This document shows, piece by piece, positions 38,755 to 64,000 of a stretch of 64,000 nucleotides of DNA; position 1 is the first letter of the stretch; each line of letters starts with the position of its first letter. The stretch is from positions 2,012-66,011 of the forward strand of contig CADBBJ010000019.1 of NCBI GenBank assembly GCA_902792865.1, given 5' to 3'. The notes below the pieces were generated by a model, which was not told the origin of the DNA, did no database searches, and saw only the letters and a list, made by a program, of their open reading frames with translations. Source of the DNA: Candidatus Ruminimicrobiellum tauri. Lineage in GTDB: Bacteria; Elusimicrobiota; Endomicrobiia; Endomicrobiales; Endomicrobiaceae. Both the position numbers and the translations under genes were made by a program.

Positions 38755-39171
38755 ATGATGAAAAAAGATAACTTTTTAAAACTTGCAAAAGTTGTTGTAA
38801 AAATAGCAGAGGATAAAAAGGGCGAAAATATTGTTTTATTAGATGTTAAAGAACTTACTGAAATTACAAATTATTTTGTTATAGTTACGGCAAATTCAAT
38901 GCCACAAATAAATGCCATAGCAAACGAAATAGAAAAAACTTTAAAGTATGATTATGAAACAGAAGTTTTAAGAAGAGATGGTGGTTCTACTGTTAATTGG
39001 AAAGTTTTAGATTTCGGAGGTATTATTGTCCATATCATGAGTCAAGATTTAAGGACTTTATATAATCTTGAAAATATTTGGGCAAAAACCAAACAAAAAA
39101 ATATATCTGACAAAACAAAATCTGCAAAGGCGAAAAAAGTTGTTAGAAAAACCAAAAAAACTGCAGAATAA
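38755..39171 (+). CDS. rsfS: ribosome silencing factor RsfS (iojap family)
   Basis: KKGENIVLLDVKELTEITNYFVIVTANSMPQINAIANEI...WKVLDFGGIIVHIM; basic C-terminal tail. Confidence 0.85.
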   Translation: MMKKDNFLKLAKVVVKIAEDKKGENIVLLDVKELTEITNYFVIVTANSMPQINAIANEIEKTLKYDYETEVLRRDGGSTVNWKVLDFGGIIVHIMSQDLRTLYNLENIWAKTKQKNISDKTKSAKAKKVVRKTKKTAE

Positions 39172-39329
39172 ATATTAAAATATATAAAAAATCAATTTTG
39201 CCGTTCGCCGTTGCCGTTTGTTGTTTCCTTTGCCGTCATTGAGAAAATACGGAGTATTTTTGTGGTAATCCGGTCGTTGCCTTTTCTGTTGTTGCCGTTT
39301 CGTCTTTGTAGTTGTTGTTTTTTATTTTT

Positions 39330-39365
39330 CCATAGACTGCCACACCCTAACGGGTTCGCAGTGAC
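39330..39365 (+). repeat. P element copy 4
   Basis: Identical 36-mer. Confidence 0.95.
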
Positions 39366-39562
39366 AGCACCCCTGATTGTTTTTCATCCGTTTTGTCTTT
39401 GTCTTTTGCCGTTGTCGTTCCGCCGTTCGTCGTCTTTCCGTGAAAAAATTTTGATTTTTTCGTGGCAATCCATAAAAAAATAAATCCGTTTTCCACTTTT
39501 TTGTCATTCCGTGACCGAAGGTCGTGGCAATCCAGTCGTTGCCTTTGTTGTTGTTTATTATT

Positions 39563-39598
39563 CCATAGACTGCCACACCCTAACGGGTTCGCAGTGAC
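39563..39598 (+). repeat. P element copy 5
   Basis: Identical 36-mer. Confidence 0.95.
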
Positions 39599-40152
39599 AG
39601 CATCCTGATTGTTTTTCATCCGTTTTGTCTTTGTTGTTGCCGTTGCCGTTATCGTTGCTGTCTTTCCGTGAAATTTCTGCGAATTTTCACGGAAAGACAT
39701 AAAAAATAAATCCGTTTTCCTATTTGTCGTTAGAGAACCCGGGCTTTTTCTTTTGAAGTGCGATTTAGAGACGGCTTATGAGTGAACAATTTTTTAAACA
39801 AAAAACTACAAGAACAAGCTTTTTCCGAAGGGCAATGTGTCTTTGTTTGAGCTTTTTTCGTTACAATATGTCGTTAGAAAAAAGCGAGTTGGCCTTTGGT
39901 TTAAAAAATTGGAACGAAAATAGAATGTACTTATAGTAGTGATAAATGGTCTAAAAAACAAATAATTCGCCGTTTTGTCTTTGCCGTTGCCGTTGTCTTT
40001 TGCCGTCTTTGCGAGGCAACTTGTTGCCGTGGCAATCCATAAAAAAATAAATCCGTTTTCCTGTTTGTCGTTAGAGAACCCGGGAAATTTTCTTTGAAGT
40101 GAGTTTTAGAGACAGTATATGAACGAAGTATTTTTTAGAGTACAAATATAAA

Positions 40153-41754
40153 TTAAAAATTGATAAGCAAATTTTTATATTTTGTTTCCAAATCTTTATC
40201 TTTTAATTCTTTTGCAATTAAAATAAGTTTTTCACAAATCTCTTTTGATTTAAATTCTTTATCAAATGAATTTATAAAACATTCTTTTGCTTTTTGATAG
40301 TTTTTATCATAGAAATAATATTCACCTAACAGAAACCATTTATCAGGCTTTATTGCAGTTATTCCTGATGTTTCAGGATATTTTAATTTTAATGCTAATT
40401 GGCAAAATTTCTCGTACCTGTCAAATCTTTTATCATAATCATTATTAACCGATTTCCAATATAAATGATGATCCGATTTTGTTATTGAAAATTTTTCCGG
40501 ATTGTTTCTTACATAAGTACACTTCTCCAATGTAAAGAAAGATTGACTTGCCAGAATAGAGTTTACATAAGGTCTTGCCTTAACTAAAAATTTCAATGTT
40601 TCATGAAAATCTTCATCTGTTTCTGTCGGAAAGCCACACATCATATTTATTTGAAATGAAATTCCTGCTTCTTTTGTATTTTTAAACAGTTCAATTGCTT
40701 TTGGAATTTTAAACTTTTTATTCATGGAATCTAAAACTTTTTGTGAACTGGACTCTACTCCATAACCAACCAAACCGCAACCGGCTTGTTTCATTTTTTT
40801 TAGTAGTTTTAGTGTCATATCATCTCTGACAACCGCTTGCCCTGCCCAAGAAATTCTAATGTCGTTTGATATTATTAAATCACAAAATTCTTCAAGATTT
40901 TTTAAATTTCCGTTTAACAATAATCCGTTAAAGTAAAAATAATTTATTTGTGCAAAATCAGTAATGTGTTTCTTTATCTGTTCAAATAATCTTCCGGCAG
41001 ACATTGTTCTGTATTTTGGCCAAAATAATCTTTCATAACAGAAATGACAAGCATTGATACAACCTCTTGAATCCAGTAAATCAAGCCTGTTAGTTTGTTC
41101 GTATTTGTTATTTAAAATATCATCTTTAAAATCCATATAATCGGGAATTGGTAAAGAGTCTAAATCTTTTACCGTTTCACTTTGTCCGCAATCAATAACT
41201 TCACCGTCTTTTTCCATTAAAAAGCCTTCGCATTTCGGCAGGTTATTTATATCAAAGTTTTCTTTTAATTTTTCTAAAAGATTTTTTAGGGGAATATCCG
41301 CTTCACCGTAACAAACATAATCTATAAAATTTTGTTTTGCAAAATCATAAGCCATTTGAGTTTTTGCAGCTTTATGACCTAAGAAAATTATTATGGAATT
41401 TTTTTTTGATTCTTTTATTTTTTGTGCTATGGCATAACTTATGTTTACGGACGGAGTATGTGTATCAAATATAAAAACATTTGCATCGGTAGCTAAAATG
41501 GCGGTTATGGATTTTTGTGCATTTGAAACTTTTAATATTGTATCCGTAAAAGTATTGTTTTCCCAAACAGAATAAAAGTCTCTGTTTGTCCAATACTTTT
41601 TGTTTTCTTCGTTTGCCTGATGATAAAAAATATTATTTAAATCAAAACAAAAAGTTTCATGCCCTAAACTTTTTAAATATGTTGAAAAATAGGCAAGTAT
41701 ATAAGGAGGACAATATCTTACCCACCAGGGACATTTTATTAAGGCAACTTTCAT
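40153..41754 (-). CDS. B12-binding-domain radical SAM protein (class B-like) with a TPR-like C-terminal tail
   Basis: N-terminal Rossmann-like B12-binding region. The CxxxCxxC motif is in SRGCINACHFCYE. Later motifs GLVGYGVESSSQKVL and FPTETDEDF; 533 aa. Confidence 0.8.
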   Translation of the reverse strand: MKVALIKCPWWVRYCPPYILAYFSTYLKSLGHETFCFDLNNIFYHQANEENKKYWTNRDFYSVWENNTFTDTILKVSNAQKSITAILATDANVFIFDTHTPSVNISYAIAQKIKESKKNSIIIFLGHKAAKTQMAYDFAKQNFIDYVCYGEADIPLKNLLEKLKENFDINNLPKCEGFLMEKDGEVIDCGQSETVKDLDSLPIPDYMDFKDDILNNKYEQTNRLDLLDSRGCINACHFCYERLFWPKYRTMSAGRLFEQIKKHITDFAQINYFYFNGLLLNGNLKNLEEFCDLIISNDIRISWAGQAVVRDDMTLKLLKKMKQAGCGLVGYGVESSSQKVLDSMNKKFKIPKAIELFKNTKEAGISFQINMMCGFPTETDEDFHETLKFLVKARPYVNSILASQSFFTLEKCTYVRNNPEKFSITKSDHHLYWKSVNNDYDKRFDRYEKFCQLALKLKYPETSGITAIKPDKWFLLGEYYFYDKNYQKAKECFINSFDKEFKSKEICEKLILIAKELKDKDLETKYKNLLINF

Positions 41755-41756
41755 TG

Positions 41757-42598
41757 TTACCTTTCCTCATCCACTATCCACTTATATTCATCGCAGGGAC
41801 AAGTTTCCGCTTCGCAAGGCATTGGTTTATCATGTAATCTGAAATTTTTGTCCGTAAATATGTTTCCGATAGGTTTATGGCTTAAAGGTCCGCATCTTGT
41901 AACCGTTCCGTCTGCTTTAATTGAAGCATATATATGACCCGCTCTACACAACAATTTACCTTTGGTTTTTTGACCTTCAAGATGATATTTTAATCTGTCA
42001 ACATCTCCCATATAAGGTTTCATCATTTCTCTTTCTTCATCCGTATATGCCTGAGGATAAGTTTTTCCGCAATATTCACCATGAAAAGCAGCTAATGCCA
42101 TAACAATACCATGGCTTTTAAATATATCGTCATAATATTTTATTTATCCATGTTTGGCGGATAAGCTAAATAGCAAACTCCGCCTTTGAAACCGTATTTA
42201 TATAAATATAAAACTTTTCTGATAAAAGGTTCTATTTTTGTTTCCAACGGATGAAAATTCATATCAAGTCTTACTCTTTCGGGGTTTAGTTGCTTTGCAA
42301 AGGTAAACATATCTCCCGATAATTGACAGGTAACTTTTACCGTATGCTTTTTTGAAATAACTTCTACCAAATCTGTAAATCTCGGATATAAAGTCGGTTC
42401 TCCGCCGGTAATCATTAAATCGCATTCACCATATAAGTCGTACATCCTGTCCCAAATTTCTACCATTTTTTCAAAAGGCGGATATACATTATGTTTATCC
42501 ATTTCGTCCCAAACTTTATCAAACCAGCAATAAGGACATCTGAAATTACATCTGTAATGAGAATCCCATACAAAACTAACTTTTTGTTTTTGTTGCAT
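41757..42598 (-). pseudogene. radical SAM protein with a Cys-rich (SPASM/twitch-like) C-terminus, split into 152-aa and 114-aa ORFs by a 1-nt frameshift
   Basis: The N-terminal ORF (42140-42598) carries CNFRCPYCW and GGEPTLYP. The C-terminal ORF frame is open from 42143 and reads IKYYDDIFKSHGIVMALAAFHGEYCG...CRAGH...RCG...CEAETCPC. The two frames abut at gataaataaaat (minus strand, 42137-42148). Restoring one A would fuse them into about 279 aa. Confidence 0.6.
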
Positions 42599-60633: not shown

Positions 60634-61034
60634 CTGTTCTCCGATATTTACCACAGAGGAAATATTAACAAATATCAAAATAAAATTTATAAACAAATTT
60701 TATAAATCAATTTTACATTAACAGATTTTATAATATTTATGAGTTTTTATCAATGAACTTTAGAAGTTTAATATTTTAATATATAAAAAACTTCTCTTAA
60801 TTTTATATAAAACTTATATATTTTTTTTCTTTTGAACTGTTTTTTATCTTCAAAATCTTATTATTGTTATCGCTTTAGCATTGTTTTATAAAGAAGAAAA
60901 CAAAAAAACAGTTTACTGTTTTTATATTTGTAAACAGCCTACATTATGAAATAATGTAATTATTTTAAATATTTATGTCTGAGAACTAAAAATGTAAGTT
61001 CTCGGCTGTTGCCATGATTTTATATTACTTAAAA

Positions 61035-61107
61035 CTGCCCGACCTGGGCTCGAACCAGGACTATTCTGTTCCAGAGACAGATGTGTTACCAATTACACCA
61101 TCGGGCA
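61035..61107 (-). tRNA. tRNA-Gln (anticodon CTG), no encoded CCA
   Basis: The reverse complement reads tgcccga-tg-gtgt-aattggta-acac-a-tctgt-ctCTGga-acaga-atagt-cctgg-ttcgagc-ccagg-tcgggca-g (U1:A72). Confidence 0.88.
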
Positions 61108-61250
61108 ATTCAAACAGCATTTCAATCAATACTGAGATTTTACAAAAACTTTATATATTTATCAATATCAATCAGCCAAAAAACATATGTTTTTGATAAA
61201 AATTTTTATATATTGTAAATTATACTGGTAAAAAATATTGGAGAATTGTA

Positions 61251-64000
61251 ATGTCAGCGGAATTTGTACATTTACACAATCATACGGAATATTCGTTACT
61301 TGACGGTTTGACCAAATTAACAAAAAAAGGTAAACCGTTAGAACTTTTTAATATCATAGGAAAACAGTATCAAATGCCTGCACTTGCAATTACCGATCAC
61401 GGTAACATGTACGGTGCAATGGAGTTTTATTGGGCATGTTTGGATAGCGGTATAAAACCTATTATAGGTTGTGAAGTATATGTTGCCAAGAAAAGCAGGT
61501 TGGATAAAGATAAAGAAAATGTCGGTAATCATCATTTAATATTACTTGCGAAAGATAATGAAGGTTACAGAAACTTATGTTATCTTGTAAGTGCCGGATT
61601 TACGGAAGGTTTTTATTATAAGCCGAGAATAGATAAAGAATTGTTACAACAATATTCTAAAGGTCTTATATGTTCTTCTGCCTGTTTAGCCGGAGAAATA
61701 GCAACACTTCTTTCTGCAGGTAATAAAGAAAAAGCAAAAGAAGTTGCCGGGTGGTATCAGGATGTTTTCGGTAAAGGTAACTACTATCTTGAAATTATGG
61801 ATAACGGTCTTGAAGAACAAAAAAAAATAATTGCACCTCTAATGGAACTTTCAAAAGAAACGGGGATCCCTCTTGTTGCTACAAACGACTGTCACTATTT
61901 AAAACAGGAAGATGCATACTATCACGATATTTTATTATGTGTTAATACACAAAAAATGGTAAACGATCCCAACAGAATGAGAATGGGTTCAAATTTGTTT
62001 TATTACCGTTCACCGGAAGATATGATAAAAACTTTTTCTTATGTTCCCGAAGCAATAAAAAACACACTTGTTATTGCAGATATGGTAGATGTTAAAATAA
62101 GAAAAGGTAACGGTGATTTGTTGCCCAATTTTGAAGTTCCCGAAGGTTATACGGCACAAACATATCTTGAACATCTTTGCAGAGAAGGTCTTAAAAGAAG
62201 GTATCCTGTTATAGAAAAAAAACATACCGACAGATTGGAATACGAACTTTCCGTTATTAAAAAAATGGGTTTTGCTTCTTACTTTTTAATTGTTTGGGAC
62301 TTTATAAAATATTCAAAAGATCATGGAATACCAGTAGGTCCGGGTAGAGGTTCCGGTGCAGGTTCTATTGTAACATATACACTTGGAATTACGGATATTT
62401 GCCCGTTAAAATATGATTTGCTTTTTGAAAGATTTTTAAATCCGGAAAGAGTTTCTATGCCGGATCTTGATATTGATTTTGCGGATTTTGGCAGAGAACA
62501 GGTTATAGACTATGTTAGAAACAAATATGGTAAAGATAATTGTGCTCAAATTATAACTTTCGGTGCTATGGAAGCAAAAATGGTAGTAAAAGATGTCGGC
62601 AGAGTTATGGGTTTTCTTCCGGCAGATACACAAAAAATAGCAAATGCTATTCCTGCAAACTATTCAATTCAGCAAGCATTGACAGAATCTAAAGAGTTAC
62701 AGGAAATTATAAAAAAAGATAATAGAGTTGCAGAACTTATAAAAATATCTTCAAAACTTGAAGGAACGAAAAGACATACCGGTGTTCATGCAGCAGGTCT
62801 AATTGTTGCTCCGGAAGATGTAAGACACTTTTCTCCTCTTGCAATAGGTAAAAAAAATGTAATAACTACACAATATGACGGTAGAATTTTGCCGGACTTA
62901 GGTCTTTTAAAAGTTGACTTTTTAGGGCTTCAAAACTTAACGGTTATAAACGAGGCAGTAAAACTTATAAAGAAAAAAGAACCTGATTTTGATTTGGAAA
63001 AAATTTCTCTTGAGGATAAAAAAACATTTAAACTTTTGCAGGAAGCAAAAACATTCGGTATATTTCAGCTTGAATCCGAAGGTATGCAGAATTTGGTTAG
63101 AAGAATGAAACCTACCAGTATAGAAGATATAACGGCATTGAATGCTCTTTACAGACCGGGACCTATCGGTGCGGGCATGCTTGACATTTTTGTGGATTGC
63201 AAGCATGGCAGAAGAAAAGTTACTTACGATCATCCGTTACAAGAACCTATATTAAAGAACACTTATGGAGTTATTTTGTATCAGGAACAAGTTATGCAAA
63301 TGGCTATGGCTATAGGTGGTTTTACGGCAGGACAAGCGGATGGTTTAAGAAAAGCCATGGGTAAAAAACTTATAGATAAAATGCAGGCCGCAAGAGAAAA
63401 ATTTGTTGACGGCGGTAGAGCTAAAGGAATAGATCCTGCAATAACAAACAAAATTTATGATAACATGGTAACATTCGCGGGATACGGTTTTAATAAATCT
63501 CACTCTGCTGCTTATGCTTATGTTACATATAGAACAGCTTACTTAAAAGCTCATTATACACTTGAATATATGACGGCATGTATGAACAACGAAATAGGTA
63601 AATCTGCGGACAGTAAAGTAATAGAATATATGGAAGATGTTAAACAATTCGGTATAAAAACTTTACCGCCTGATATAAGATATTCAAAAAGTGAATTTTC
63701 GGTTGAGGGGAAAAATATAAGGTTTGGTCTTCTTGCCATAAAAAATGTGGGTGAAGGTGCAGCGGAAAATATAGTTAAAACCGGAGAAAAGTTTGGCAAG
63801 TTTGAATCTTTTGAAGATTTTTTGTCAAAGATAGATTTATCCGCTGTAAACAAAAGAGCAATAGAATGTCTTTGTAAAGCAGGAGTATTTGACTGTTTCG
63901 GTAAAAATAAGTTGGAAGTCAGAGCAAAAATACTGGATAATATAGAAGAAACAATTCAACGGGCAATTAAGACAAAAGAAGAACAAAATGATAGTCAGGG
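61251..64000 (+). CDS. dnaE: DNA polymerase III alpha subunit, 3'-truncated by the window end (absent from the ORF track because there is no stop)
   Basis: The ATG at 61251 lies 8 nt after ggag. The hand translation is MSAEFVHLHNHTEYSLLDG (PHP domain)...GPGRGSGAGSIV...MPDLDIDF...FQLESEGM...YRPGP...GYGFNKSHSAAYA, open to nt 64000. Confidence 0.93.
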   Translation, partial: MSAEFVHLHNHTEYSLLDGLTKLTKKGKPLELFNIIGKQYQMPALAITDHGNMYGAMEFYWACLDSGIKPIIGCEVYVAKKSRLDKDKENVGNHHLILLAKDNEGYRNLCYLVSAGFTEGFYYKPRIDKELLQQYSKGLICSSACLAGEIATLLSAGNKEKAKEVAGWYQDVFGKGNYYLEIMDNGLEEQKKIIAPLMELSKETGIPLVATNDCHYLKQEDAYYHDILLCVNTQKMVNDPNRMRMGSNLFYYRSPEDMIKTFSYVPEAIKNTLVIADMVDVKIRKGNGDLLPNFEVPEGYTAQTYLEHLCREGLKRRYPVIEKKHTDRLEYELSVIKKMGFASYFLIVWDFIKYSKDHGIPVGPGRGSGAGSIVTYTLGITDICPLKYDLLFERFLNPERVSMPDLDIDFADFGREQVIDYVRNKYGKDNCAQIITFGAMEAKMVVKDVGRVMGFLPADTQKIANAIPANYSIQQALTESKELQEIIKKDNRVAELIKISSKLEGTKRHTGVHAAGLIVAPEDVRHFSPLAIGKKNVITTQYDGRILPDLGLLKVDFLGLQNLTVINEAVKLIKKKEPDFDLEKISLEDKKTFKLLQEAKTFGIFQLESEGMQNLVRRMKPTSIEDITALNALYRPGPIGAGMLDIFVDCKHGRRKVTYDHPLQEPILKNTYGVILYQEQVMQMAMAIGGFTAGQADGLRKAMGKKLIDKMQAAREKFVDGGRAKGIDPAITNKIYDNMVTFAGYGFNKSHSAAYAYVTYRTAYLKAHYTLEYMTACMNNEIGKSADSKVIEYMEDVKQFGIKTLPPDIRYSKSEFSVEGKNIRFGLLAIKNVGEGAAENIVKTGEKFGKFESFEDFLSKIDLSAVNKRAIECLCKAGVFDCFGKNKLEVRAKILDNIEETIQRAIKTKEEQNDSQ

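Follow-up and report, generated by a model that had tools for sequence, protein, structure and literature searches.

What is the repeat-dense spacer of about 980 bp that separates rsfS from the 3' end of a radical-SAM gene in Candidatus Ruminimicrobiellum tauri, and does it mark a place where the chromosome has been rejoined? This non-coding spacer, here termed island C (39172-40150), lies in a window of 64,000 nt, the whole stretch of DNA that was analysed and to which all unprefixed coordinates refer, on contig CADBBJ010000019.1 (C19) of assembly GCA_902792865.1, a 2.12-Mb draft genome of 101 contigs with 28% G+C. The analysis suggests that island C is probably an array acting at the DNA level, organised like the Neisseria intergenic mosaic elements (NIMEs) and composed of hairpins of the type recognised by Ssn nucleases.

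Blastn searches with island C against its own genome returned 181 segments at 34 loci, and iteration of the search extended the set to 52 loci covering 13.2 kb, often situated at contig ends. At 988 bp, island C is the largest assembled member of these approximately 52 repeat loci, and its grammar is repeated in at least 20 other islands. These 52 loci make up an intergenic family, in agreement with the proposal of an initial annotation of this DNA, made from the sequence alone, that the repeats form a genome-wide family and are not part of the giant genes near which some of them lie. The modules listed by that annotation were all located in the order and at the places it gave; they comprise seven hairpins (five of a type designated H and two of a type designated P) joined by recurring linkers. 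The G+C content of the island is 39%, versus 29-31% in its flanks.

The hairpins on the plus strand were found to share a frame, (C/T)GTC-WTTSCGWG...CGTGGCAATCCA(K), surrounding an inner stem that is specific to each copy but complementary within it. Each hairpin encompasses a 5' (C/T)GTC tag, an outer stem of the form ATT(C/G)C...G(C/G)AAT, a C placed directly after the stem and a CA tail. The stem is organised in two tiers, with a 5-bp outer stem, an internal loop and an inner stem of 4-11 bp, for a total length of 32-43 nt. A perfectly paired inner stem of 5 bp or more was present in 83% of 29 distinct hairpin sequences and in 7% of their shuffled versions. A pattern derived from the frame matched 73 sites in the genome, and the same pattern reversed, used as a control, matched none. 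Among 13 congeners, 11 presented the frame pattern, with 0-24 sites per genome and again no matches for the reversed control, and their inner stems differ yet stay complementary. The frame is also spread over many phyla, with instances in the Neisseriaceae, Rickettsiales, Treponema, Helicobacter, Patescibacteria and Gastranaerophilales, among others; one of the many matches was to a metagenome-assembled Elusimicrobium genome.

The second hairpin type, P, had been annotated as a separate element, a view that did not survive inspection of its reverse complement, which is a hairpin of the H superfamily. Read on the minus strand, P carries the same tag, an inner stem and the C that follows the stem, and its outer stem, ACTGC/GCAGT, constitutes a compensated change from ATTGC/GCAAT; the frame pattern captured P without any adjustment. 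H copies have CGTC/TGTC...AATCCA, and P copies TGTC...AGTCTA. The P frame, GTCACTGCGA...GTGGCAGTCTA, occurs in 24-28 copies in the genome, and it lies on the strand opposite to H in all 21 cases in which P shares an island with H. A hybrid at C30:3189 joins the P frame to an H inner stem, and congener G012 has a P-frame copy with a different inner stem. P is thus an inverted hairpin of the H superfamily, and the islands alternate in polarity, with H/P pairs arranged both tail-to-tail and head-to-head, like dimers of repetitive extragenic palindromes (REPs) and bacterial interspersed mosaic elements (BIMEs).

The strand of the hairpins bears on whether these modules operate as DNA or as RNA. 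The initial annotation had assigned to the modules the sense of the upstream gene, and for H this held in 17 of 21 islands (p=0.007); it failed for P, which is inverted in 21 of 21. The H bias, together with an excess of gene 3' ends over 5' ends facing islands (28 and 15, p=0.066), would be expected if the modules were 3'-untranslated-region hairpins that protect mRNA ends or attenuate convergent read-through, as has been proposed for many REPs. A conserved CGTG/CGTG stem base that requires G-U (G-T in DNA) wobbles, workable only on the plus strand, points the same way, and many REPs have been noted to lie downstream of genes and may act as RNA (Di Nocera, De Gregorio and Rocco 2013, PMC3733652). 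Several observations argue against this explanation, which we regard as unlikely. Beyond the placement of P on the other strand, U-runs are absent after the hairpins, A-runs occur after them on both strands, and a scan for terminators and promoters detected no excess, with a single weak terminator-like site. Searches against Rfam with gathering and permissive thresholds, on the window, island C and 15 loci of relatives, identified no family (the window yielded only tRNAs, and the best match of island C was a microRNA model at E=0.14). Furthermore, SsnA does not bind RNA (PMC11893778), and arrays of 5-10 units exceed the needs of an mRNA end.

Evidence that the array instead operates as DNA comes from the genes embedded among the hairpins. 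The genome presents three GIY-YIG matches, two of which are single-domain genes of 92-95 aa (Pfam GIY-YIG, 59.4 and 58.7 bits), located at C32:210-488 and from C48:14055 to the contig end. Each was observed to have hairpins on both sides, and a P fragment stops approximately 20 nt ahead of the start codon of the C48 copy. The motifs YVY, LYTG and EREKQ are visible in the small GIY-YIG protein sequence, fitting the catalytic Tyr, Tyr and Glu residues. Orthologues are present in 8 of the 13 congeners at 56-77% identity, and in G012, G010, G006 and G011 frame hairpins lie 10-80 bp from the gene on one or both sides. A scan across phyla, in which 1 of 120 fetched loci had an ssn-like gene, found the same hairpin-gene-hairpin layout in an unrelated locus (L153); so low a proportion is expected where there are many hairpins per gene.

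Ssn nucleases were characterised in 2025, and the layout observed here is the NTS-ssnA-NTS gene architecture described for them (Chenal et al. 2025, PMC11893778). Their neisserial target, NTS, reads CGTCATTCCCGCGMAVGCGGGAATCYRG; the GTC upstream of its stem is critical for cleavage by SsnA, and the C after the palindrome for binding (PMC11893778). The combination of a (C/T)GTC tag, a stem and a following C is present in the island C hairpins H2, H3 and H5 and, on the minus strand, in both P copies, with H1 being degenerate and H4 lacking the right frame. H3 reads TGTCATTCCGTG..CGTGGCAATCCAG, and near-canonical NTS copies, such as GTCATTCCCGAAAGYAGTAATCGGGAATCCA, are found elsewhere in the genome. 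The published degenerate pattern for this repeat class, SRM (HGTCWYN(0-2)YYVSBRHN(0-5)WNVSBRGN(0-2)RNCYNB), matched four sites in the genome, where Markov-simulated genomes gave 0-2. Three of the four are true NTS-like copies; the remaining one (39994-40023) is no hairpin but a stretch lying in the GCCGTT linker and the left half of H5. The repeats resemble NTS and SRM elements in their (C/T)GTC head, their ATTCC/GGAAT-like stem, the C after the stem, their nearly exclusive extragenic and clustered location, and their occurrence on both sides of a single-domain GIY-YIG gene of about 95 aa. They differ in number, with approximately 80 hairpins here versus hundreds.

The position of the islands among genes was examined against a single comparator genome, the congener G004 (27 contigs, 1.83 Mb), with gene calls based on open reading frames (ORFs) and 1085 pairs of reciprocal best hits with a median identity of 81%. 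Genes beside islands of at least 100 bp, here considered flanking genes, had a G004 orthologue in 14 of 41 cases (34%) versus 1039 of 1608 other genes (65%; p=1e-4), revealing that island placement is not random. The bias persisted against genes beside island-free spacers of at least 250 bp (14/41 versus 315/511, p=8e-4) and, with the same spacer control, after leaving out genes of at least 800 aa (13/33 versus 297/483, p=0.016). Genes of at least 2000 aa are overrepresented at islands (3/41 versus 8/1608, p=0.002). The islands therefore adjoin variable and giant genes, as reported for NIME and NTS clusters. As a separate observation on giant genes, a single open frame of approximately 10,500 codons in G004 (C11:79965-111638, loci L255-L256) is the best match, at 48% identity over 937 aa, of a 2682-aa giant gene in the window.

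These features invite comparison with several described repeat systems. NIMEs consist of dRS3 hairpins flanking RS spacer families, and arrays of this kind were stated in 2007 to be without an observed example outside Neisseria (Bentley et al. 2007, PMC1797815). Like them, the islands studied here are intergenic arrays of short hairpins separated by reusable spacer families of 20-200 bp (PMC1797815), show G+C peaks at the hairpins, grow by duplication, accept opportunistic inserts (Correia elements in Neisseria, an element designated X in island C) and lie beside variable genes, often encoding surface proteins, and at recombination end-points. Unlike NIMEs, they occur in a member of the Elusimicrobiota with 28% G+C, strictly alternate two frame types, include runs of GCCGTY hexamers among their spacers and use two-tier hairpins with a long variable inner stem in place of the dRS3 ATTCCC-N8-GGGAAT. 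The island C hairpins, with ATTCC/ATTGC...GGCAAT and long inserts, do not follow the dRS3 consensus; a minor subfamily elsewhere in the genome reads ATTCCCG...CGGGAAT, with a spacer longer than that of dRS3.

The CGTC-tagged REPs (PMC3733652) share with the islands the CGTC/TGTC tag, a stem starting with AT, a CCA tail, inverted dimers, a location downstream of genes and the lack of an associated transposase. They have, however, stems of 8-9 bp with loops of 4-5 nt instead of a two-tier stem, and rarely form clusters; P also departs from them in presenting ACTGC for ATTGC and a CTA tail. Enterobacterial BIMEs are likewise mosaics of two hairpin types in alternating orientation with few linker motifs, but their REPs carry a GTAG tag and are associated with a RAYT transposase, whereas CGTC/TGTC tags and no RAYT are found here. 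Island C departs from the described systems in four respects: it occurs in another phylum, its hairpins have two tiers, its two frame types alternate strictly, and it contains embedded X remnants.

Island C directly follows the stop codon (39169-39171) of the core gene rsfS (38755-39171, plus strand; Pfam RsfS, E=9e-29), which has a reciprocal-best orthologue in G004. A plus-strand, hexamer-rich linker of the GCCGTT type (39199-39234; Tandem Repeats Finder period 6, unit TTGCCG) terminates in the GCCGTC tag of H1, and further linkers of this type lie at 39403-39431, 39635-39659 and 39968-40004; the GCCGTY hexamer runs are probably slippage products of the tag region. H1 (39235-39273, plus strand) is a degenerate two-tier hairpin, GTCATTGAG aaaatac gga gtatttt TGTGGTAATCCGG, with a weak DNA fold of -3.4 kcal/mol. 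It is followed by P1 (core 39330-39369), a minus-strand match to the SRM-like frame pattern that reads TGTCACTGCGAACCCGTTAGGGTGTGGCAGTCTATGG, and by the conserved flank of P, CCTGATTGTTTTTCATCCGTTTTGTCTTTGT (39372-39402, plus strand), which accompanies most P copies and is exactly duplicated at 39604-39634. H2 (39432-39473, plus strand; -6.7 kcal/mol as DNA), with frame GTCTTTCCGTG...CGTGGCAATCCAT, precedes a plus-strand A-rich linker, AAAAAA(A)TAAATCCGTTTTCC, present at 39475-39494, 39701-39720 and 40042-40061. H3 (39503-39535, plus strand), GTCATTCCGTGACCGAAGGTCGTGGCAATCCAG, has seven identical copies in the genome and forms a tail-to-tail pair with the second inverted hairpin, P2 (core 39563-39602, minus strand). 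H5 (40005-40040, plus strand), GTCTTTGCGAGGCAACTTGTTGCCGTGGCAATCCAT, has the same inner stem in congeners G006, G010 and G012. Within the island, 39289-39402 is duplicated as 39522-39635 at a spacing of 233 bp, and another duplication is spaced by 341 bp, indicating that the island grew by segmental duplication.

The remaining hairpin, H4 (39660-39698), is a perfect palindrome with arms GTCTTTCCGTGAAA/TTTCACGGAAAGAC, and it folds as DNA with -16.8 kcal/mol (z -8.5). Alone among the hairpins of the genome, it has the exact complement of its left frame in place of the usual right frame, and its sole blast match elsewhere is its own reverse strand. Such a structure fits hairpin-templated strand switching during DNA synthesis.

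The right half of the island is occupied by X (39721-39967, plus strand; core 39777-39917). The initial annotation had described X as extended by 104 bp. This additional segment is not an insertion but the conserved core of an element of approximately 215 nt, from which the short copies derive by deletion. In all 13 congeners the interior of X (39777-39918) is multi-copy and 70-83% conserved, and the aligned copies define three helices. The closing helix, of approximately 20 bp, differs substantially in sequence between subfamilies while keeping its complementarity, a second long helix sets CAATTTTTGAGAC/GTCTCAAAAATTG against GAAAATTGAAAAC/GTTTTCAATTTTC, and the apical hairpin sets CTTTTTTC/GAAAAAAG against GCTTTCCC/GGGAAAGC. 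All three, closing helix included, co-vary between subfamilies. RNAalifold predicted 27 pairs in X, 13 of them with compensatory changes, and single copies fold as rods (z -6.3 and -5.9).

Among 104 genomes of the order, a covariance model of X gave matches in 25, nearly all of them in this family, with 1-17 mostly full-length copies per genome; representative copies in relatives are L179 (G003:C125:12799-13022) and L185 (G011:C24:26503-26718). The genome under study yielded three matches, all restricted to the core, and the one in island C (C19:41788-41928, in contig coordinates) covers only model positions 41-186. The island C copy is decayed, its 3' closing strand having been lost in a 37-nt deletion relative to a copy on contig C38. 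A diverged 5' fragment, X' (40062-c.40152, plus strand), with 82% identity to 39701-39805, overlaps the stop codon of the radical-SAM gene at the right end of the island. Searches of Rfam with X, including the copies from relatives, identified nothing similar. X is a well-supported, undescribed structured multi-copy element of this bacterial family.

Two candidate identities for X were rejected. It is not a small protein gene: a 52-aa ORF (39778-39936) starts from a conserved ATG, and the frame ends after 11-32 codons in relatives. Nor did a search of G004 favour a miniature inverted-repeat transposable element (MITE) with an autonomous parent, as it revealed no long version and no paired ends around an ORF. 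In that genome, 12 of 14 X copies lie between co-directional genes in antisense, as X is oriented here, and the copies end 3-17 nt from the stop codon of the upstream gene. X copies in congeners often have an adjacent SRM hairpin. We also noted two same-orientation copies bracketing a 265-aa gene in G004 (C2:56913-58156), within a run of 249-, 265- and 242-aa genes. X-type elements occur just 3' of rsfS in L009 (G009:C59:63226-64003) and L015 (G010:C19:16987-17400), on the strand opposite to that of the island C copy, and the G010 one contains an extra insert of approximately 170 nt that is itself a long hairpin; the spacer downstream of rsfS seems to be a repeated landing site. By analogy with the Correia elements in NIMEs, X is best read as an unrelated passenger in the array.

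The abundance of such repeats raises the question of whether the island is transposable-element debris, composed of MITEs or insertion sequence (IS) ends moved by a transposase such as RAYT or a REP-targeting IS. The repeats are certainly multi-copy and patchy, with 73 frame matches in this genome and at most 24 in congeners; contig ends hold many of the copies, and X shows inverted complementarity at its termini. We nonetheless consider this origin very unlikely. No match to the Y1_Tnp/RAYT transposase (PF01797) was found in the genome, where the only genes regularly embedded among hairpins are the small GIY-YIG genes, and the complete congener genome G004 has no long autonomous X. Furthermore, the closing helix of X changes in sequence with its complementarity kept, unlike terminal inverted repeats recognised by a transposase.

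Island C is located at a break in gene order. In 8 of the 13 congeners, a 363-aa gene forms a contiguous group with rsfS and dnaE, and the spacer between rsfS and dnaE measures 25-430 bp. Here dnaE starts at 61251, 22 kb beyond rsfS on the same contig and in the same orientation, and the 363-aa gene is found on contig C80, where another island abuts its 3' end. To the right of island C, on the minus strand, lies a three-gene cassette (40153-42598; assigned with Pfam) encoding radical-SAM proteins of 152 and 533 aa and a 114-aa protein; its edge next to the island is the stop codon (40153-40155) of the 533-aa gene (40153-41754). The cassette has no homologue in G004, and its orthologues are patchy, being present in 3 of the 13 congeners and in three other genera. 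In G001, G003, G094 and G099 the radical-SAM cluster is an operon of four or more genes. A fourth radical-SAM gene directly follows the 533-aa gene in four of the five cassette genomes examined, and the fifth, G006, has an unrelated convergent gene at that position. In our genome, the orthologue of the fourth gene resides on another contig (C27:1329-2477), where the next two genes of the operon (C27:337-2477) lie beside rimP-nusA and an X-type remnant occupies C27:1-320. The radical-SAM operon is hence cut exactly at island C, where the rsfS-dnaE adjacency is broken as well, and the two 3' ends that the island brings together are not adjacent in any of the relatives examined.

It had been suggested that the islands may mark junctions of accessory segments. 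The paucity of orthologues among flanking genes and the contact of island C with a patchy cassette agree with that suggestion, but most of the 21 kb that follow island C on its right is core DNA. The interval between rsfS and dnaE (39172-61250) contains dxr, der, plsY, gpsA, an ispE-like gene and a gene for an extracytoplasmic function (ECF) sigma factor, all with orthologues in G004, and corresponds to three core blocks scattered over three G004 contigs; it is bordered on the right by tRNA-Gln (61034-61108), with no repeat on the dnaE side (61109-61250). The possibility that these 21 kb constitute a genomic island was rejected on the basis of their core orthologues in G004, the three-gene radical-SAM cassette excepted.

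Given that both gene adjacencies at island C are unique to this genome, we considered whether the repeat family is real but the assembly of this member is chimeric, with two islands joined through a shared X core and rsfS and the radical-SAM gene not being true neighbours. Exact repeats of 99, 85 and 76 nt are common to island C and other loci, the 99- and 85-nt ones falling within 39734-39918, and the internal order of the island therefore depends on how the short-read assembler resolved them. Contigs C3 and C38, moreover, stop within this same X sequence, and either might be a genuine partner. Against a misjoin, one contig still carries both rsfS and dnaE, in the same orientation and separated by 22 kb, an arrangement that a random chimera would hardly produce; no repeat is present at the dnaE side of the break; and both the junction of X' with the stop codon and that of the 37-nt deletion in X were found in this locus only. 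A chimeric origin of island C is hence quite improbable.

A mechanism that would link these observations can be proposed from the analogy with the neisserial systems and from the linkage of nuclease genes and hairpins. Hairpins exposed in single-stranded DNA during replication, repair or the entry of transforming DNA would be bound by the 95-aa GIY-YIG nucleases of Ssn type that the genome itself encodes, which would nick just upstream of the hairpin. Repair and recombination at nicked sites could then duplicate and shuffle modules, and the arrays might in this way become preferred joints for rearrangement and for the exchange of neighbouring genes. X, as a multi-copy element, would have landed in the array much as Correia elements have in NIMEs. 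The genome encodes ComEC and DprA, whose presence is uninformative because they are nearly universal.

A number of findings weigh against the interpretation of island C as a DNA-level array of Ssn targets. Taken singly, the hairpins have low folding stability as DNA (-3.4 to -7 kcal/mol, z -0.7 to -2.2), and it is conservation and covariation, not folding energy, that show them to be real. The published SRM pattern matches no hairpin of island C, because the inner stem exceeds the loop it allows, and the G-T wobbles and the orientation bias would also fit an RNA role. The number of hairpins tracks the presence of an Ssn-like gene only loosely among the incomplete metagenome assemblies of the genus (73, 24, 21, 14, 9, 3, 2, 2 and 0 hairpins per genome with the gene; 7, 7, 2, 2 and 0 without it). 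Regarding the nuclease genes, the C32 copy contains, close to its 3' end, a perfect tandem duplication of 61 nt (C32:398-520, locus L001) that causes a frameshift and alters the final 12 residues; this could be either a genuine mutation or an artefact of assembly. The C48 copy is interrupted by the contig end. Attempts to name the small GIY-YIG protein yielded no specific NCBIfam model and only a weak UPF0213 match in PDB. Finally, most synteny breaks between this genome and G004 lack an island. The repeats are therefore not a general cause of rearrangement, a role that we rejected on this basis, and a causal part of the island in the rearrangement at this locus is no more than possible.

It is conceivable, as a tentative and rather doubtful extension of these results, that H/P pairs and small GIY-YIG genes form an active system for nicking single-stranded DNA, a functional counterpart of REPIN/RAYT, in which a dedicated transposase moves REP doublets, but based on a nuclease of a different fold. 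Such a system would build arrays that serve as joints for exchanging gene blocks and accessory cassettes, such as the giant surface-protein genes and the radical-SAM cassette, and island C would be the fossil of one such event. Since extended hairpins escape the published pattern, current SRM censuses probably undercount these repeats. The combination of oriented hairpins, an embedded small GIY-YIG gene and arrays beside variable genes indicates that a NIME-like logic arose, or was retained, in a remote and uncultured gut lineage with AT-rich DNA. In island C, the coincidence of an array with both a broken operon and a broken conserved gene pair makes the link between repeats and reshuffling testable in this lineage.

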